This document shows positions 22,167-37,364 of a stretch of 37,364 nucleotides of DNA, piece by piece. How positions within the stretch are numbered: position 1 is the first letter of the stretch; each line of letters begins with the position of its first letter. A model generated the notes under the pieces. It saw nothing but the letters and a program-made list of their open reading frames with translations. It made no database searches and was not told where the DNA came from. Source of the DNA: a virus (taxonomy: Duplodnaviria; Heunggongvirae; Uroviricota; Caudoviricetes); the IMG/VR virus record IMGVR_UViG_2548876853_000021, one strand, 5' to 3'. The position numbers were made by a program, and so were the translations under genes.

Positions 22167-23933
22167 ATGAACACCACACTGACACCCGCAGATCTCGATC
22201 CCCGTCGGCAGGCCATGCTGCTGTACTTTCAGGGATACCGCGTAGCCCGCATTGCTGAAATGCTGGGCGAGAAAGTTGCAACCGTTCACAGCTGGAAAAA
22301 ACGCGACAAGTGGGGTGACTATGGGCCGCTGGATCAGATGCAGCTCACCACCGCCGCACGCTACTGCCAGCTCATCATGAAGGAGCACAAAGAAGGGAAA
22401 GATTTCAAAGAGATTGACCTGCTGGCGCGCCAGTCGGAGCGCCACGCGCGGATCGGCAAGTTTAACAATGGCGGCAACGAAGCCGACTTAAACCCTAACG
22501 TCGCCAACCGCAATAAAGGCCCACGCCGTCAGCCGGAAAAGAATGTTTTCACCGATGAGCAGATTGAGAAGCTGGAAGAAATCTTCCATTCCTCCATGTT
22601 CAACTACCAGCGCCACTGGTGGGAAGCCGGAAAAACCAACCGCATCCGCAACCTGCTGAAGTCACGCCAGATCGGCGCGACCTTTTACTTTGCCCGTGAA
22701 GCCCTGATTGACGCCCTGCTTACCGGACGTAACCAGATTTTCCTTTCCGCCAGCAAGGCACAGGCCCACGTCTTTAAGCAGTACATCATCGACTTCGCCA
22801 AAGAAGTGGGGGTGGAGTTGAAAGGCGATCCGATGGTGCTTCCTAACGGGGCCACGCTTTACTTCCTCGGCACCAATGCCCGCACGGCCCAGAGTTATCA
22901 CGGCAACCTGTATCTGGATGAATATTTCTGGATACCGAAATTCCAGGAGCTGCGCAAAGTGGCTTCCGGTATGGCTATTCACAAAAAATGGCGACAAACC
23001 TATTTTTCCACGCCATCCAGCCTGACACACAGTGCTTATCCGTTCTGGTCCGGTGCGCTGTTCAACCGTGGGCGCAACAAAGCCGATAAGGTGGACATCG
23101 ACCTGTCCCACAACAATCTGGCCCCCGGCCTGCTGTGCGCAGACGGGCAATACCGCCAGATAGTCACCGTGGAAGATGCGGTGCGCGGCGGCTGTAACCT
23201 GTTCGACCTCGACCAGTTGCGCATGGAGTACAGCCCGGACGAATACCAGAACCTGCTGATGTGTGAGTTCGTAGACGATCTCGCGTCCGTGTTCCCGCTC
23301 AGCGAGCTGCAGGCGTGCATGGTGGACAGCTGGGAAGTCTGGACCGACTTTCATGCACTGGCCCTGCGCCCGTTTGGCTGGCGCGAGGTGTGGATCGGTT
23401 ATGACCCGGCAAAAGGTACGCAGAACGGCGACAGTGCCGGATGCGTTGTGGTGGCTCCGCCAGCCGTGCCGGGCGGTAAGTTCCGCATTCTTGAGCGTCA
23501 CCAGTGGCGCGGGATGGACTTCCGCGCCCAGGCGGACGCCATCAAAAAACTGACCGAACAGTACAACGTGACCTATATCGGCATCGACTCGACCGGCGTC
23601 GGTCACGGGGTTTATGAGAACGTGAAAGCGTTCTTTCCTGCCGTCCGGGAGTTTGTCTACAACACCAACGTTAAAAACGCGCTGGTACTCAAGGCCTACG
23701 ACATTATCAGCCACCACCGTCTGGAGTTTGACGCCGGGCACACCGACATTGCGCAATCATTTATGGCAATCCGTCGCGCCACCACCGCCAGCGGCAACCG
23801 CCCGACCTATGAAGCCAGCCGCAGCGAAGAAGCCAGCCACGCCGATCTGGCCTGGGCAACAATGCACGCACTGTTTAACGAACCACTGCAGGGCGAGTCC
23901 GCCAATACAAGTAATATTGTGGAGATTTTTTGA
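22167..23933 (+). CDS. P: terminase large (ATPase) subunit P
   Basis: 588 aa; P2 gpP size and position. Confidence 0.9.
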   Translation: MNTTLTPADLDPRRQAMLLYFQGYRVARIAEMLGEKVATVHSWKKRDKWGDYGPLDQMQLTTAARYCQLIMKEHKEGKDFKEIDLLARQSERHARIGKFNNGGNEADLNPNVANRNKGPRRQPEKNVFTDEQIEKLEEIFHSSMFNYQRHWWEAGKTNRIRNLLKSRQIGATFYFAREALIDALLTGRNQIFLSASKAQAHVFKQYIIDFAKEVGVELKGDPMVLPNGATLYFLGTNARTAQSYHGNLYLDEYFWIPKFQELRKVASGMAIHKKWRQTYFSTPSSLTHSAYPFWSGALFNRGRNKADKVDIDLSHNNLAPGLLCADGQYRQIVTVEDAVRGGCNLFDLDQLRMEYSPDEYQNLLMCEFVDDLASVFPLSELQACMVDSWEVWTDFHALALRPFGWREVWIGYDPAKGTQNGDSAGCVVVAPPAVPGGKFRILERHQWRGMDFRAQADAIKKLTEQYNVTYIGIDSTGVGHGVYENVKAFFPAVREFVYNTNVKNALVLKAYDIISHHRLEFDAGHTDIAQSFMAIRRATTASGNRPTYEASRSEEASHADLAWATMHALFNEPLQGESANTSNIVEIF

Positions 23934-24961: not shown

Positions 24962-24967
24962 AAAAAT

Positions 24968-24985
24968 GGGCACCATGAGGTGCCC
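24968..24985. terminator. hairpin between convergent Q and the 474-aa NTPase gene; terminator for the minus-strand gene
   Basis: gggcacc-atga-ggtgccc; on the minus strand it is followed by TTTTTT. Confidence 0.55.
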
Positions 24986-24991
24986 AAGTTG

Positions 24992-26654: not shown

Positions 26655-26995
26655 AAATCGGTCAAACCTTGAAACCAGTCATAAATATGAGCCAGCTTAA
26701 TACACACTAAATAGCTGCGTCTAATACTGCTACACCTGCCGTTTACTGACATGTGGCATGTCGCGTAAGGACAACATACTGTAGGCCAGATACAGCAGGA
26801 TCAGGCGAAGAAAACGGCCCCACGCCTTACCCAGCAAGGGCCAAGGGCTAACCGAAAGTGGAGCATTATTCCGCGCAGTTATTTAGTGTCAGCTCTTTTG
26901 AGCTAAAATCAAGTTTCAACATGAGGGTCTGTGCAGGCTTTCTCATCCCGCTAATTTATACAGCACACCTATATGGCTATGAGTTTGTCATGCCC

Positions 26996-27027
26996 GCTAA
27001 TCCTGTTAGGATTAGCCTTGTTTTTTT
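26996..27027 (+). terminator. strong hairpin plus U-tract immediately upstream of the lipoprotein gene
   Basis: gctaatcct-gtt-aggattagc then cttgTTTTTTT; ends 18 nt before the ATG at 27045. Confidence 0.5.
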
Positions 27028-27044
27028 ACGATTGGGATAGGGAT

Positions 27045-27851
27045 ATGAAGAAATTAACTGGCGTAATTGCTTTTGCTCTGCTGCTTACTGCTTGTGACAA
27101 ACCGAAGATCGATGCATCAAGCGATCAGTCGATGAAAGAGTCCATTCAAAAAGTAAGAGAGTCCTTACCTGCAGATAAAAAAGCTCAGTTTGATGATGCA
27201 GTTAAAGTCGTTGCCTTTAGCCAAATCAACATGAGAGAGCTAATGCAGGCTGGAACGTCTTCTGGGGACGTCTACGAAACAAAAATTAAGTCAGCGTTGG
27301 AAGGTAAAACTGGTGATGAGGTTATAAATTACGCACAAACTATTCGCCTTGAGCGTGAGAAGAGAGAGAAAGAACAGGCTCTGCAAGAAATAAAAGAACT
27401 GGAAGCCAAACAAACCTCTGCAACACAGGCTGCGGAAAAAATGAAAGCCTTCAAGGTCGAACGTTCCCGTTTTTATTTCCAGAAAGAGGATTACGGCAAT
27501 GATCAGCCAATTCTGGATATTAGCGTTGAAAACGGAACAGACAAAGCGGTTGCCAGAGTATTCTTCAAAGGAGTTATTGCCAGCCCAGGAAGAAGCGTCC
27601 CTTGGTTCTCTGACGTCTTCAACTATAAAATTTCTGGAGGTCTGGAACCAGGTGAGAAAGCCAACTGGAAATTAGCCCCTAATAGATACTCTGATTGGGG
27701 AAAACTTAAAGTTCCGGCTGATGCTATATTTACCGTCACAGTCATTGGCCTTGAAGACGCAGATGGGAAATCGATCTATGGTGACGCCGAGTTTTCAGAA
27801 CGCGATGCTGACAGACTGAATCAACTTAGAGATAAGTACCTTTCTAAATAA
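27045..27851 (+). CDS. lipoprotein, function unknown (accessory)
   Basis: 268 aa from MKKLTGVIAFALLLTAC (lipobox LLTAC); charged coiled-coil middle region; about 40% GC. Confidence 0.7.
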   Translation: MKKLTGVIAFALLLTACDKPKIDASSDQSMKESIQKVRESLPADKKAQFDDAVKVVAFSQINMRELMQAGTSSGDVYETKIKSALEGKTGDEVINYAQTIRLEREKREKEQALQEIKELEAKQTSATQAAEKMKAFKVERSRFYFQKEDYGNDQPILDISVENGTDKAVARVFFKGVIASPGRSVPWFSDVFNYKISGGLEPGEKANWKLAPNRYSDWGKLKVPADAIFTVTVIGLEDADGKSIYGDAEFSERDADRLNQLRDKYLSK

Positions 27852-27959
27852 TCAAAATTAAAGCTACTTCAGCATAGTCCCTGAGAATATATATCAGGGA
27901 CTACCAAATCACGGCAGATACCCCTTAGTTAAATAATGCTAAACGCTTAGAAAGAGACC

Positions 27960-28259
27960 ATGAAACGTATAACTTTCTCCTTTACGTTAGTAGCAATCAT
28001 CATAGCCTTAGCTGGATGTGCTTTGCCAGATAAAGACGGCGACTTCGGAGCTTATGTTCATGCCTGTCAGCAATATGCATACGGAAAATCCTATGCCTTT
28101 GAGAATAGAGACTTCGCGTATAAGGTCTGTAAGGACGCGGCGAAACTGTGGAGTGAAGAAGTTCCTGGCTATATCATCAGGCAAATTCAACTACATCCTG
28201 AAATACCCAGCGAAGAAATTAAATATGCAGCCATGGCCGGCTCTTTGGGTAACAACTAA
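27960..28259 (+). CDS. small lipoprotein, function unknown (accessory)
   Basis: 99 aa; signal peptide with lipobox LAGC; Cys-containing mature part. Confidence 0.65.
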   Translation: MKRITFSFTLVAIIIALAGCALPDKDGDFGAYVHACQQYAYGKSYAFENRDFAYKVCKDAAKLWSEEVPGYIIRQIQLHPEIPSEEIKYAAMAGSLGNN

Positions 28260-28326: not shown

Positions 28327-28515
28327 TCAACTGATTACATCCATCGACCTACTGTATTCATGGCTTCGAATTTTCGCCATCAACTCATCAGTCAATTCAG
28401 AAACCCACTGCAGAGCTAGCCCCTTCTCTTCATCACTACACTCACTAGCCGCTACAAGCTTAAGAAAAAAATCAATGCGCTGGAGCTTCAAAGACTCCAA
28501 AAAATAGTCCTGCAT
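28327..28515 (-). CDS. small hypothetical protein (about 62 aa, helical, acidic)
   Basis: internal ATG preceded by GGAGGAAAG; the longer ORF-track start (28617) is less likely. Confidence 0.4.
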   Translation of the reverse strand: MQDYFLESLKLQRIDFFLKLVAASECSDEEKGLALQWVSELTDELMAKIRSHEYSRSMDVIS

Positions 28516-28668
28516 CTTTCCTCCTATAACACCATACGCAATACTGTACATATAACCACTGTTTATATTTACAGTATATAATAATCTTACTGATGTAAAA
28601 CGTTTTTTTACGTTCATCAGCCTGATATGCCTGGTATTATTAAGAGCACGAATTGTTAACCCGCGTGA

Positions 28669-33224: not shown

Positions 33225-33734
33225 TCACAGCAAACCGAATGAAGCACCGAGGCCAGTCACGGTATCAACTGCACTCGCCATCGCAGGATTAGCCTGTAAA
33301 CGGGCCTGCAATGAAACAGCCGCCAGCGCCATCAGTCGTGTTACAGAATTAATGCTGCTGATCGCATCGCGACGGCCTGCACTGGTTTTTACATCGCCAG
33401 AAACCGCACCTGCAGCAACACGCCCGATCTCTGCGGTTGCACTCATGACGTAATGTGGCAGTCTCTCTTTTGCCACCTCATTTACCGGTATACATGGCAG
33501 GCAGTGAATCTGAGCCAGAAATCCATCAACCAGTGTTGGGTCTTCAGTGAGATCGGTTAACTGCCAGATATCTGACGCAGTAAGTTGGTGTGGTTGTTCC
33601 GGGTTGAGCTTGTTACGCAAGGTTTGAACGTTCATACCTGCGCGCTCTGCCAGCTTCGCCATGTTGTGTCGTAGGGCGAAGGCCCGGCAGGCTTCATTGA
33701 AATGGGGATGTTTTGAAATGCGATAGTCAAACAT
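33225..33734 (-). CDS. cII: CII-like regulatory protein (186 CII type)
   Basis: 169 aa, same length as 186 CII; second gene of the lytic operon after apl. Confidence 0.75.
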   Translation of the reverse strand: MFDYRISKHPHFNEACRAFALRHNMAKLAERAGMNVQTLRNKLNPEQPHQLTASDIWQLTDLTEDPTLVDGFLAQIHCLPCIPVNEVAKERLPHYVMSATAEIGRVAAGAVSGDVKTSAGRRDAISSINSVTRLMALAAVSLQARLQANPAMASAVDTVTGLGASFGLL

Positions 33735-33766: not shown

Positions 33767-33988
33767 CTAGTTGATAGTCACGTTGCAATCAGAGAGGGCA
33801 TCGATCGTCATCGCAGCAATGTTAATCATCACTTTTTCACGCTTTTTATCCTTACGTAGGCGATGACGAGGCAAACGCCCATCTGCAAGCATGTCGTTAA
33901 TTGTGTCGATAGATAAGCCAGTGAGTTCACTATATCTTTCTATAGTAACGTGGGGGGTGATGAGAGTGATTGAAATGTTAGGTCTCAT
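33767..33988 (-). CDS. apl: Apl/Cox-like excisionase-repressor
   Basis: 73 aa from ATG with AAGAGGA Shine-Dalgarno; small basic HTH protein divergent from cI. Confidence 0.7.
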   Translation of the reverse strand: MRPNISITLITPHVTIERYSELTGLSIDTINDMLADGRLPRHRLRKDKKREKVMINIAAMTIDALSDCNVTIN

Positions 33989-34113
33989 GATGCAACATTC
34001 CTCTTTTAGCAATGATTAATCAGGATGAATACTGATCGTTTGTATTATGTGAACACTGCAAACATACGATCACATCATGAAATCGTCAAGGTAAAAGTTC
34101 ACTTGGAGTGACC
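33989..34113. promoter_or_regulatory. apl-cI intergenic switch region with candidate operator dyad
   Basis: 125-bp AT-rich region between divergent genes; inverted repeat tgatcgtttgt (34033-34043) / acatacgatca (34062-34072). Confidence 0.5.
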
Positions 34114-34677
34114 ATGAATTTGGAAAAAGGCGGTCGTGGGGCCATAGAGCGCATGGTTGAAGCCTATGGTTTCAAGACAAGACAAGCTTTGTGTGATCAT
34201 TTGGGCATTTCTAAAAGCACCTTAGCCACGCGCTATATGCGTGATTCATTCCCGGCAGAATGGGTAATCCAATGTGCACTTGAAACCGGCACGTCGCTAG
34301 AGTGGCTAACTACTGGGCAAGGTTCAAAAGAAAGTTCACAAAAAGAAAACACAAAAGAGATCGAAAGGAAGATTTTATCAAGCGGAAAACTACTTCCTGA
34401 TGGTTACTACATTTTCGACAACAACTTTTTGCCTGAAAAACTAAAAAAACCTTTTGTTGTGATCGATGGCGCATCAGAGTTTATCTGTGATTCGGATTAT
34501 GAGGATGTACGTGATGGTAAGTGGATCGTTGATATTGATGGCGAGGTTGCTATCAGGAATCTGACAAGACTGCCGGGACGTCGTCTAAATGTCGATGGCG
34601 GCAGCAGTTCCTTTGAATGCAAAATAGATGAAATTGATATCATAGGAAAAATTAGAAGCGCGATCGTCAATTATTAA
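34114..34677 (+). CDS. cI: CI immunity repressor (186 CI type)
   Basis: 187 aa from ATG with GGAG Shine-Dalgarno; N-terminal HTH; size and position as 186 CI. Confidence 0.8.
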
Positions 34678-34700
34678 AATTAATGTATAAGGAAATAAAT

Positions 34701-34886
34701 ATGTTTTATAAATCTATACATATCCTACTTATTTGTTTATTTATTACTTTACCTATTACAAGTTTTGCAAAAAATTATCCATGTTCTGGTAAGAAAGGGG
34801 GAGTTTCACATTGTACATCTGATGGGAAGTTCGTTTGCAATGATGGAACGCAAAGCAAGTCAAAGAAAATATGTTCTAAAAACTAA
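34701..34886 (+). CDS. small secreted Cys-rich peptide (predicted signal peptide, about 38-aa mature peptide)
   Basis: [23 protein letters not shown] signal-like N-terminus, then a Lys-rich mature region with 4 Cys; AAGGA Shine-Dalgarno; very AT-rich. Confidence 0.5.
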
Positions 34887-34897
34887 GGTTGCTTCAT

Positions 34898-36229
34898 ATG
34901 AATAATGATATGACTTTTGAAAACAGAGATGAGTATAATAGAAAAATCATTGCTGAAAAAATAATAAGCTTACTCGAGTCCCCCTTAAAAATATCCCCTA
35001 TTGTTATCGATGGGGACTGGGGTACCGGTAAAACCGAATTTTCAAAAAAATTAGCGGCATTGATTGAAAAAAATGAATCTGGGCATAAAGTAGTATATAT
35101 TGATGCATTTACTGAAGATCATAATGATGCTCCCATACTTACTATAATGGCTGCAATAGTTGCATTATATCCAGAGAGTGAAAAGAAGGAATTAATATCA
35201 AAGGCATTACCAGCATTGAGATTTGGACTTAAAACTGTACTCAAAGCTGGCGCTGGGTGGATTTTAAAACAAAATGCAGATGATATTGCGGATGAATTCG
35301 AAGATGCTATTAAAGATGCGGCTAACTCAGCTATAGATGGTACTGTAGAAGCACTGCTTGATGATCATATTGAAGCAAAGAAACATTTGCTTGCTCTCAA
35401 GGAAGTACTTGCTGAACTAACTAGCGAAAATAAAATAACAATTATCATTGACGAACTTGACCGTTGTAAACCAAGCTTTGCCATCTCTATCATCGAAAAT
35501 ATAAAACATGTTTTTGACACTGAAAATCTTAACTTCTTGTTAGTTGCTAACATCTCACAATTGAAAGCATCAATAAATCATATTTACGGTGCAGGTGTTG
35601 ACTCAGAAAGATATCTTGATAAATTTATAAAATTCACTTACAGCCTGCCAGTGACTTTCACTGAAAACAATTACGATAAAATTTTGGCTTCGAACTCTCA
35701 TTTTAGAATGCTATGTAACGAGTCTGAAAGACTAAAAGAAATTGGAGAAAGTAGTATTCATATAGTTCAAAAATTTATCGAACTAAAAGGCTTGTCGCTA
35801 CGGGAAGTTGAAACCTTATCAAGATATCTAGAAATTTATCAAATTTTATCTCAAAATGAAATCAGCAATAAATTTATACCAGGCTATTGCTGTTATCGAA
35901 CCCTTGCAGTAATTCTTTATTCGTTTGGTCGTGAACTGGCCCTTAACTACGTAGAAGATAAAATAGATGCACAATTAATAATCAATTTCTTCGGTGTTAA
36001 TAGACTCCCATATCAGACAGATCAATATAACATCAACATCTACTATTATGCATTATTTGGTATAACTTATAAATATATGCCAGAAGGTTCTCCTTTACTT
36101 CCTTCTGAAAACGATGAAAAAAACAGATGGGCTGAAATAAGTGATTATCATATTTTAAAAGGAAATGCAGGTGTAGAAGACCCTGTTAGAATATTCAAAA
36201 ACACCTTAAAAGTTTTCTTGCTCCAATGA
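34898..36229 (+). CDS. KAP-family P-loop NTPase
   Basis: 443 aa; Walker A GDWGTGKT and Walker B IIIDELDRC typical of KAP NTPases; Shine-Dalgarno overlaps the stop of the upstream small ORF; AT-rich. Confidence 0.8.
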   Translation: MNNDMTFENRDEYNRKIIAEKIISLLESPLKISPIVIDGDWGTGKTEFSKKLAALIEKNESGHKVVYIDAFTEDHNDAPILTIMAAIVALYPESEKKELISKALPALRFGLKTVLKAGAGWILKQNADDIADEFEDAIKDAANSAIDGTVEALLDDHIEAKKHLLALKEVLAELTSENKITIIIDELDRCKPSFAISIIENIKHVFDTENLNFLLVANISQLKASINHIYGAGVDSERYLDKFIKFTYSLPVTFTENNYDKILASNSHFRMLCNESERLKEIGESSIHIVQKFIELKGLSLREVETLSRYLEIYQILSQNEISNKFIPGYCCYRTLAVILYSFGRELALNYVEDKIDAQLIINFFGVNRLPYQTDQYNINIYYYALFGITYKYMPEGSPLLPSENDEKNRWAEISDYHILKGNAGVEDPVRIFKNTLKVFLLQ

Positions 36230-36287
36230 AATGTTTGATTGAAGATCTTTAAACATTGACCACTGTTCAAACATACAGTTAAATTTA

Positions 36288-36311
36288 GTCCTCAGACATG
36301 AGGACTTTTTT
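36288..36311 (+). terminator. intrinsic terminator after the KAP gene; its stem contains the int Shine-Dalgarno
   Basis: gtcctca-gaca-tgaggac then TTTTTT, directly abutting the int ATG at 36312. Confidence 0.55.
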
Positions 36312-37364
36312 ATGGCAGTACGAAAACTCAACACAGGTAAATGGATTTGTGAATGCTACCCCGCCGGGCGCAATGGGCGGCGTGTGCGTAAGCAGTTTGC
36401 AACTAAGGGTGAAGCATTGGCTTTTGAGCGTCACACGATGGAAGAAACCGGAGCAAAACCCTGGCTGGGTGAATCAGTGGATCGTCGAACACTGAAAGAC
36501 GTGGTTGAGCTATGGTTCAAACTACATGGTAAATCTCTGACGGCTGGGCAGCATGTCTATGACAAATTGCTGTTGATGGTTGACGCTCTGGGAAATCCCA
36601 TTGCAACCGATCTCACCTCTAAAATGTTTGCCCACTATCGAGATAAACGCCTGACAGGAGAGATCTACTTCAGCGAAAAATGGAAGAAAGGAGCAAGCCC
36701 GGTCACCGTTAACCTAGAGCAAAGCTATCTAAGTAGTGTTTTTAGCGAACTATCCCGCCTGGGCGAATGGTCGTATCCGAACCCACTGGAGAACATGCGA
36801 AAATTCACCATCGCAGAAAAAGAGATGGCATGGCTTACCCATGAACAGATTGTTGAATTGCTGGCTGATTGCAAACGTCAGGACCCAATTCTGGCACTGG
36901 TAGTCAAGATATGCTTAAGCACAGGCGCACGCTGGCGAGAAGCAATAAATCTTACCCGTTCACAGGTGACTAAATACCGAATTACCTTTGTCAGAACGAA
37001 GGGGAAGAAAAACAGAAGCATTCCCATCAGTAAAGAGCTTTACGAAGAGATCATGGCACTTGATGGGTTCAATTTCTTTACAGACTGCTATTTTCAATTT
37101 TTATCCGTGATGGAAAAAACGTCTATCGTGCTCCCTCGCGGTCAACTGACACACGTTCTGCGTCATACGTTTGCGGCGCATTTTATGATGTCGGGTGGAA
37201 ACATCCTGGCCTTACAAAAAATTCTCGGGCATCACGATATAAAAATGACGATGCGTTACGCACATCTGGCACCGGATCATCTGGAAACGGCGCTCCGTTT
37301 CAATCCTCTTGCAACGCTGCCAAGTGGCGACAAAGTGGCGGCAGCGGTTGGCATTACCCCGTAA
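36312..37364 (+). CDS. int: tyrosine integrase (P2-family)
   Basis: 350 aa; N-terminus resembles P2 Int; catalytic R (LSTGARWREA), H-x-x-R (HVLRHTF) and Y (MRYAHL); stop is the last codon of the window. Confidence 0.9.
   Translation: MAVRKLNTGKWICECYPAGRNGRRVRKQFATKGEALAFERHTMEETGAKPWLGESVDRRTLKDVVELWFKLHGKSLTAGQHVYDKLLLMVDALGNPIATDLTSKMFAHYRDKRLTGEIYFSEKWKKGASPVTVNLEQSYLSSVFSELSRLGEWSYPNPLENMRKFTIAEKEMAWLTHEQIVELLADCKRQDPILALVVKICLSTGARWREAINLTRSQVTKYRITFVRTKGKKNRSIPISKELYEEIMALDGFNFFTDCYFQFLSVMEKTSIVLPRGQLTHVLRHTFAAHFMMSGGNILALQKILGHHDIKMTMRYAHLAPDHLETALRFNPLATLPSGDKVAAAVGITP

Follow-up and report, generated by a model that had tools for sequence, protein, structure and literature searches.

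A putative SOS- and CII-responsive control module with a Shine-Dalgarno-sequestering hairpin upstream of the integrase gene of 186-like prophages

Introduction

In coliphage 186, the integrase gene int rides on the transcript of the repressor gene cI. How int is controlled once the two genes lie apart is the question raised by a viral DNA sequence of 37,364 nucleotides (IMG/VR record IMGVR_UViG_2548876853_000021; this whole stretch is called the window here). It is a 186-like (Peduoviridae) prophage, whose immunity and integration region forms the end of the window and is 100% identical to a prophage adjoining rcdA/ybjJ in Escherichia coli strain H2. Here, 1634 nt separate the stop codon of cI (34677) from the ATG of int (36312), so that the coupling of cI to int found in 186 is absent, and a hairpin followed by a run of T residues stands directly before the int ATG. 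A reading of the letters alone (the sequence-only reading) had proposed that this hairpin ends transcripts arriving from cI and, on read-through, hides the int Shine-Dalgarno (SD) sequence, which would uncouple int from the lysogenic operon.

Sequence comparison identifies the hairpin as one part of a module of ~80 nt that is conserved upstream of int in relatives from many Enterobacterales. The reading preferred here, with a probability of about 60%, is that the hairpin forms the downstream half of a compact int control module and works as a transcript discriminator together with a promoter read by LexA and CII. The evidence consists of the sequence elements themselves, their statistics, conservation and covariation across relatives, and predicted RNA energetics.

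Results

The hairpin contains the only plausible int Shine-Dalgarno sequence. The 7-bp stem of the sequence-only reading (36288-36294 paired with 36299-36305) is present exactly as it had been placed, and an additional pair, A36287-T36306, lengthens it to 8 bp, four of which are G-C (Table 1). Folding of positions 36270 to 36330 gave -14.9 kcal/mol (z = -3.85), with none of 200 shuffled sequences as stable, and the hairpin folded alone gave -12.2 kcal/mol. Six T residues (36306-36311) run directly against the ATG (36312-36314), as had been noted. With its 8 bp, four G-C pairs, 4-nt loop and ensuing U6, the structure at the 3' end of the unit formed by cI and its downstream cargo has the canonical shape of an intrinsic terminator, and a terminator scan returned it as the only plus-strand terminator-like site between cI and int.

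The motif GAGGA in the 3' arm ends 8 nt upstream of the ATG, leaving 7 nt between the two, and is the sole plausible SD, because the stretch from the stem to the ATG holds only T's and offers no alternative purine-rich sequence. The ATG at 36312 is the true start of int. The N terminus of the predicted protein (MAVRKL..GKWICECYP) aligns with 186 Int (MTVRKNPAGGWICELYP) from residue 1, and RefSeq places the start at the same codon both in BL21(DE3) and in the prophage of E. coli H2, which is 100% identical. Together, the residue-1 alignment and the RefSeq ATG rule out another int start codon.

Other roles for the leader were considered and rejected. A minus-strand promoter or a bidirectional terminator at the hairpin finds no match in the sequence, as the minus-strand tail (AAATTTAA) has no T-run and the minus strand presents no convincing hexamers. 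Assignment to a known RNA family failed as well, with Rfam returning only sub-threshold chance matches. One of these, to RyhB at 36256-36313 (23.1 bits, E = 0.09; gathering score, 55), most likely reflects by chance an A/U-rich leader followed by a terminator hairpin. Within the last 20 kb of the window, the sole other terminator tail as clean as that of the int hairpin belongs to a perfect 8-bp palindromic hairpin at 24967-24986 (TGGGCACC..GGTGCCCA, six G-C pairs), with T7 on the minus strand.

The hairpin is conserved by covariation and travels with int. Leaders of int were extracted from a sample of 52 loci from one-genome-per-species contigs and 80 viral contigs, and 39 distinct versions were aligned. 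Their consensus reads ACA-TTGACC-ACTGTT....ATACAGT-TAAATT-T-AGCCCTCA-GACA-TGAGGGCT-TTTTT-ATG, and the order of elements is CII-like inverted repeat, -35, LexA box in the promoter spacer, -10, hairpin with SD, and int ATG. Pairing of the hairpin is kept in 95.7% of cells of the alignment, and four of the eight pairs change on both sides; values as high as those observed were reached by none of 500 shuffles, and no slid register comes close. The U-A pair at 36289/36304 of the window stands where relatives usually have C-G. At least six different stems occur, with the 5' arms AGUCCUCA, AGCCCUCA, AUGCUCUC, AAACUCUCCUAA, UGUAGCCC and ACCCCCUU. The second common version, present in BL21(DE3) just before ECD_RS26360, is AUGCUCUC/GAGGGCAU, while Kluyvera has AAACUCUCCUAA/UUAGGAGAGUUU, Serratia UGUAGCCC/GGGCUACA and Yersinia ACCCCCUU/AAGGGGGU. 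All stem variants place a purine-rich SD in the 3' arm, 5 to 9 nt before the ATG, and in all of them a -10-like hexamer ends 1 to 2 nt before the 5' arm.

The distribution of the module points in the same direction. Across hundreds of E. coli prophages, homology starts 40 to 90 nt before the int ATG, whatever lies beyond, which shows that the hairpin module goes with int rather than with the cargo. A 111-nt query comprising the module and the start of int matched 878 of 5426 complete E. coli genomes (~16%), including BL21(DE3) and NEB Express, and 458 of these matches span at least 80% of the query length. Isolated phages of Klebsiella and Escherichia have the module too, and no regulatory features are annotated in their records. 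Relatives in which cI lies 19 to 21 nt from int (L026, L027 and L029) have neither a LexA box nor a hairpin.

Two loci of the sample stand apart. A Plesiomonas metagenome-assembled genome (MAG; locus L032) carries a 55%-identical int and 1.6 kb of cargo after cI, and the 130 nt upstream of its int contain no LexA box, CII-like repeat or hairpin. A TATAAT motif lies ~20 nt before its int ATG and suggests an independent solution to the same uncoupling of cI and int. A 3-kb contig labelled "MAG: Bacillota bacterium" (L004, JAEWTL010000113.1) bears a 99%-identical int of the E. coli type with a module of the BL21 type and is probably a mis-binned enterobacterial contig.

The comparison bears directly on the simplest alternative, namely, that the hairpin is a plain intrinsic terminator of the cI-cargo operon, that its overlap with the SD is incidental and that Int comes from leak or from an unrelated promoter. 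The canonical shape of the hairpin, its position as the sole such plus-strand site between cI and int, and the orientation of the cargo, which is that of cI, all suit a terminator. So does the retention of five to eight T's across the clade of Escherichia, Klebsiella and Enterobacter, and a purine-rich SD easily becomes part of a G+C-rich stem. However, the T-run is absent in L018, L021, L024, L031 and L046, and those relatives from Serratia, Yersinia and Kluyvera that lack it still have the promoter and the LexA box, together with a hairpin whose sequence differs but which likewise contains the SD. Furthermore, the hairpin travels with int and not with any particular cargo, and termination by itself leaves the conserved promoter and LexA box that abut the stem unexplained. 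A plain terminator is accordingly an unlikely account, although one that still deserves some weight. Because the relatives without a T-run keep the SD-sequestering hairpin, the comparison identifies SD occlusion, and not termination, as the evolutionarily conserved function of the hairpin, and the terminator tail as a clade-specific addition in Escherichia, Klebsiella and Enterobacter.

A candidate int promoter abuts the 5' arm of the hairpin. A separate int promoter, or else post-transcriptional control, was implied by the sequence-only reading, and a candidate for it, named Pint here, lies directly upstream of the hairpin. It consists of TTGACC, a spacer of 17 or 18 nt, and TTAAAT or TAAATT, and it is conserved and accompanied by a LexA box and a CII-type repeat. 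The best-conserved noncoding columns of the 39 leaders are TTGA, CTG and ACAGT, which are nearly invariant. The AAA of the -10 is nearly invariant in relatives as well, and the versions from Serratia, Yersinia and Kluyvera retain TTGACC or TTGACA as the -35. The assignment of the -10 itself is putative, with either hexamer matching the consensus at four of six positions.

The sequence-only reading had overlooked that this -10 abuts the 5' arm. As a result of this geometry, transcription starting 6 to 9 nt after the -10 would give an RNA that lacks the 5' arm, and for the same reason the hairpin probably sorts transcripts instead of simply blocking them. Predicted RNA structures agree with such a role. 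In modelled read-through RNAs starting between 36100 and 36270, the SD is fully paired (predicted probability of being unpaired, ~0), in line with the occlusion of the ribosome-binding site (RBS) that had been proposed, and the predicted cost of opening the region from the SD to +6 is 13.8 to 17.2 kcal/mol. The hairpin thus modelled probably blocks int expression from the upstream repressor and defence operon. In RNAs with later starts, the predicted opening cost falls from 11.1 kcal/mol at 36287 to 7.5 kcal/mol at 36290 and 4.2 kcal/mol from 36292 on, and for RNAs of this last class the predicted probability that the SD is unpaired is ~0.35.

The position of the start is where a second alternative departs from the discriminator. 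If transcription began at or upstream of 36287, all int mRNA would carry the full hairpin, which would then be a 5' stabiliser or attenuator that has to be opened by an RNA-binding protein, by RNase processing or through ribosome standby. A36287 and G36288 are purines near the -10, an RNA from 36287 folds the full stem (-13.5 kcal/mol), and P2 Int has been described as acting on the mRNA that encodes it. Nevertheless, 36287 is only 2 to 3 nt from the end of either -10, too close for sigma-70, and a hairpin with a U-run at +1 would end Pint transcripts after ~25 nt. The abutting geometry is moreover kept in all stem variants, as the discriminator model predicts. Such an upstream start is quite improbable.

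A LexA box fills the promoter spacer. The int leader carries a LexA (SOS) box that lies between the -35 and the -10 of Pint and overlaps both elements. Its core, CTGT-N8-ACAG, has two matches in the window, against 0.34 expected, one in the int leader and the other in the promoter at the position of tum. Scored with a weight matrix derived from 18 LexA sites of E. coli (PMC3009722 Table 4), the int box reaches 18.3 bits. Only one site in the window scores higher, and the best of 200 shuffles reaches 17.8 bits. The known sites, left out in turn, score 3.9 to 28.1 bits, a range within which the int box lies. Module-bearing relatives have LexA boxes of 12 to 27 bits at -47 to -52, with the exception of L043 (5.8 bits), whereas relatives without the module score at most 0.3 bits. 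An orthologous box is present in every int at least 70% identical to that of the window for which the start and cI could be located, and cI lies at least 400 bp upstream in these cases.

An inverted repeat resembling the 186 CII operator lies upstream of the -35. In the record of 186, positions 23435-23462 are annotated as a CII binding site with the label "activate pE", and their sequence is ATGTTTG-N13-CAAACAT. The window encodes a 186-type CII and has its own pE-type operator, after which a -35-like TAGTCA stands in the register seen at Pint (CAAACA[TAGTCA] compared with TAAACA[TTGACC]). The proximal half-site at Pint abuts the -35 region, as expected of a CII-activated promoter of the 186 type. 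A search for ATGTWTG-N12/13-CAWACAT with at most one mismatch matched only the Pint and pE sites in the window, where 0.02 and 0.06 matches were expected. Of 38 distinct contexts in relatives, 31 have a distal half-site (at least 6 of 7 positions) at a distance of 12 to 13 nt from its proximal partner, compared with a background of 1.3%; 22 contexts show a 12-nt and 8 a 13-nt spacing. Murchland et al. are reported to have found, in 2014, that CII half-sites are 20 bp apart from centre to centre, which agrees with the annotated 186 site.

The arms of the repeat vary independently at the central W position, and for this reason the repeat appears to behave as a protein site and not as an RNA helix. 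An RNA hairpin or cargo terminator at this place was rejected because the repeat has no T-run, its arms are conserved without covariation and its spacing is fixed at 12 to 13 nt. It likewise bears no resemblance to the flanking operators of 186 CI (FL/FR, TTCAC-N7-GTGAA).

These motifs could in principle be relics or products of chance beside an inactive promoter, with the hairpin keeping Int low and read-through supplying it. The weak -10 would fit such decay, and so would a degraded -35 in L017, L033, L043, L048 and L054 and a degraded distal half-site in some relatives. The statistics of the LexA and CII motifs nevertheless argue against chance, and CTG, ACAGT and TTGA are the best-conserved parts of an otherwise noncoding stretch across genera with 70 to 99% Int identity, which makes relics or chance a very unlikely explanation. 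Least credible of all is that the palindrome acts as DNA, either by forming a cruciform or by binding Int, IHF or some other dimeric protein. It is a perfect 8-bp palindrome adjoining a recombinase gene among other putative protein-binding sites, but its arms differ while pairing is kept (including a G-U-compatible change of C-G to U-G in 12 sequences), as expected of paired RNA and not of a conserved recognition sequence for a protein. The neighbouring CII-like repeat shows the opposite, with conserved arms, fixed spacing and independent variation.

The junction between cI and int is a hotspot for cargo. In the window, cI is followed by a 67-amino-acid (aa) open reading frame (ORF) and a gene for a KAP P-loop NTPase, all tightly packed and in the same orientation, and the hairpin closes this unit (Table 1). 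The junction is variable in relatives, with at least 25 different cargo sets that are almost always co-oriented. The cargo includes Old (9e-235), PD-Lambda-1 (4e-120), PDC-S20 KAP NTPases and an AriA/Old-like ATPase (loci L006-L111). Co-oriented and highly variable cargo fits a need to insulate int, because constitutive expression of the cargo would otherwise drive it. A hotspot between integrase and primase has been noted in P2-like phages, with no mention of regulation (PMC13586616).

Several cargo proteins of the cI-int junction have no PADLOC match and could be uncharacterised defence genes. An ORF of 63 to 67 aa directly follows cI both in the window and in BL21(DE3) (L002, 3679-3870), where it is the sole gene between cI and the int module. 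It has a signal-peptide-like N terminus and a Cys-rich tail and finds no match in Pfam or PADLOC.

Table 1. Features of the window around the int control module and at the second SOS-type promoter
Feature	Position	Strand	Remarks
62-aa ORF	28327-28515	-	downstream of gene A; position of tum in 186
Two tandem LexA boxes (24.8 and 14.6 bits)	28542-28576	-	before the 62-aa ORF; the other SOS input of the window
cII	33225-33734	-	Pfam PF06892, 9e-43
pE-type CII operator, ATGTTTT-N13-CAAACAT	33708-33734	+	overlaps the cII start codon
ORF at apl/cox position	33767-34012	-	no Pfam family found
Co-oriented unit closed by the hairpin (cI, 67-aa ORF, KAP NTPase)	34108-36229	+	
cI	34108-34677	+	Pfam CI repressor
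67-aa ORF	34683-34886	+	between cI and the KAP gene
KAP P-loop NTPase	34889-36229	+	Pfam KAP_NTPase; PADLOC PDC-S20, 1e-171
Inverted repeat resembling the 186 CII operator, ATGTTTG-N12-TAAACAT	36231-36256	+	last T is the first base of the -35
-35 of the proposed Pint, TTGACC	36256-36261	+	promoter scan
LexA (SOS) box, CACTGTTCAAACATACAGTT	36261-36280		core CTGT-N8-ACAG at 36263-36278; fills the promoter spacer
Putative -10 of Pint	36279-36285	+	TTAAAT at 36279-36284 (17-nt spacer) or TAAATT at 36280-36285 (18-nt spacer)
Hairpin	36287-36306	+	5' arm AGTCCTCA at 36287-36294; loop GACA at 36295-36298; 3' arm TGAGGACT at 36299-36306
Predicted transcription start window	36290-36295	+	6 to 9 nt after the -10, in the 5' arm or at the start of the loop; from sigma-70 geometry
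int SD, GAGGA	36300-36304	+	inside the 3' arm
T6 run	36306-36311	+	terminator U-tract and SD-to-AUG spacer at once
int (tyrosine integrase, 350 aa)	36312-37364	+	Pfam Int_N and Phage_integrase

The second LexA site lies at the position of tum. The record of 186 annotates a LexA-controlled p95/tum promoter, and the tandem LexA boxes of the window overlap a promoter (TTTACA...TATACT) at the same place. The 62-aa ORF behind them was considered as a Tum homologue and rejected, as BLASTP shows no similarity between it and 186 Tum and Pfam returns no hit for it; PADLOC finds no match either. It may be a different SOS-controlled antirepressor. The LexA boxes of the two loci both sit in one 9-mer, ACCACTGTT (36261-36269 and 28555-28563), which may be a coincidence or may reflect a common origin of the two SOS operators. 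Further accessory cargo may be present next to the SOS-box promoter, where two plus-strand ORFs (26973-28259) run opposite to the neighbouring replication genes; one encodes a DUF6694 protein of 292 aa and the other a lipoprotein-like protein of 99 aa.

Discussion

The arrangement of the leader suggests how one hairpin could give opposite outcomes on two kinds of transcript. Transcripts from pL or pE that pass through cI, the 67-aa ORF and the KAP gene would carry both arms, and the hairpin would form. In the Escherichia-type clade, the U-run would then terminate most of them just before the int AUG, and any RNA that reads through would have its sole SD locked in the stem. In this way int would be insulated from constitutive transcription of the lysogenic genes and the cargo. 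Transcripts from Pint, if this promoter is active as its hexamers suggest, would begin in the 5' arm or the loop, so that the stem would be incomplete, no termination would occur and the SD would be exposed.

The inputs to Pint would set the time of Int synthesis. If LexA binds the operator in the spacer, Int would be made upon LexA cleavage in the SOS response, for excision together with Apl. If CII binds the repeat that stands in the register of pE, Int would be made at the establishment of lysogeny, as with lambda pI. The two inputs may act as alternatives or jointly, that is, as an OR or an AND. SOS induction would thus release the gene at the tum position, a putative antirepressor, and Int together, and CII would supply Int at establishment. 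A tentative extension of the discriminator reading, held with somewhat less than even confidence, is that a three-input int switch made of LexA, CII and the SD-sequestering terminator hairpin has replaced the coupling of cI and int in widespread 186-like prophages, keeping Int silent in the lysogen even though the neighbouring defence cargo is strongly transcribed, and allowing its synthesis on SOS, at establishment, or both.

Several observations weigh against a discriminator with these inputs. The -10 is weak, at four of six consensus positions in either register, and the likeliest start bases (36290-36293) are pyrimidines, the nearest purines being A36294 and G36295. A start at 36287-36290 would retain much of the stem, with an opening cost of 7.5 to 11 kcal/mol, and even the short transcripts pair the SD weakly with the U-run, which limits its predicted unpaired probability to the ~0.35 given above. 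In a context of -70 to +40, the opening energy of the int RBS (13.2 kcal/mol) ranks fifth among 39 ORFs of the window, whose median is 8.2 kcal/mol. The idea that its occlusion energy is unique was rejected on this ground, and the argument therefore rests on conservation and not on energy alone. The CII-type repeat at Pint has one mismatch and an N12 spacing (19 bp from centre to centre), compared with N13 at pE, and the -35 is close to consensus, which is unusual for an activator-dependent promoter. A promoter occupied by LexA would leave the supply of Int unexplained during infection of a cell in which SOS is not induced. Finally, the Plesiomonas locus has cargo but no module.

With 186 itself the window shares the architecture of the switch, homologous CI, CII and Int proteins, an ORF at the position of Apl/Cox, CII-type operators and a LexA-controlled promoter downstream of gene A. 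The control of int is different. In 186, the cI stop and the int start overlap as TAATG, which couples translation of int to cI, and the junction has no hairpin, promoter or LexA box, whereas int of the window lies 1.6 kb downstream of cI, behind cargo and module. The uncoupling of int that the sequence-only reading had contrasted with 186 is thus supported by the comparison of the two junctions.

Features of the proposed mechanism are known from other systems. For the T4 genes e, soc, 49 and I-TevI, the hairpin that sequesters the RBS contains a late promoter (McPheeters et al. 1986; review, PMC3014915). Long upstream transcripts of these genes hide the SD or AUG, while RNAs from the inner promoter, which lack the 5' strand, are translated (PMC3014915). 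The geometry of the putative promoter, whose -10 directly adjoins the 5' arm, corresponds to that of the T4 genes, and opening energy is predicted to change by ~10 to 13 kcal/mol. In contrast to T4, the promoter predicted here is a host sigma-70 promoter with sequences for a repressor and an activator and not a gp55-dependent late promoter, and the hairpin of the E. coli clade also has a U-run and could terminate transcription too.

In lambda, pI is a CII-activated int promoter, and int expression differs between pL and pI transcripts through sib retroregulation. To our knowledge, no LexA operator is known at lambda pI. Pint resembles pI in being a putative dedicated int promoter with an operator for the establishment activator and in that expression would depend on the promoter from which the transcript originates. 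The discrimination in lambda takes place at the 3' end through sib and RNase III, whereas here it would take place at the 5' end through the 5' arm. Activation of int by CII is mentioned for lambda (PMC7708051), but the CII proteins of 186 and lambda are unrelated.

The integrase gene intI of integrons is reportedly under SOS (LexA) control, according to work attributed to Guerin et al. in 2009. There, too, a tyrosine recombinase gene beside a variable array of genes has a promoter overlapped by a LexA box. Integrons differ in the recombinase subfamily and the type of element and have neither an SD-sequestering terminator nor a CII-type site; moreover, integron cassettes are moved by the integrase, and there is no evidence that the cargo described here moves in this way. 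Compared with ordinary Rho-independent terminators, the hairpin is distinct in that its 3' arm provides the SD of the next gene and its U-run the spacer between this SD and the AUG, and in that the U-run is dispensable in distant relatives. The module appears to combine known kinds of regulation. Full-text literature searches yielded no description, for P2/186-like phages, of a LexA- or CII-controlled int promoter or of this hairpin.

If the proposed control holds, it would give LexA a direct input to excision beside the LexA-controlled gene at the tum position, and would make this the first phage integrase of its kind under LexA control. The leader would also be an example outside T4 of translational gating by a promoter within a hairpin, and a small natural part that combines terminator, RBS lock and internal promoter for use in synthetic biology. 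The module is directly testable in BL21(DE3).

The supply of integrase decides whether a prophage integrates, is maintained or excises. The present analysis suggests that many enterobacterial 186-like prophages uncoupled int from cI when the junction between them became a hotspot for defence cargo. In these prophages, int appears to have been rewired to the SOS response, and probably to CII, by a compact and portable element of ~80 nt, which would explain how a defence hotspot can lie between repressor and integrase without deregulated excision.

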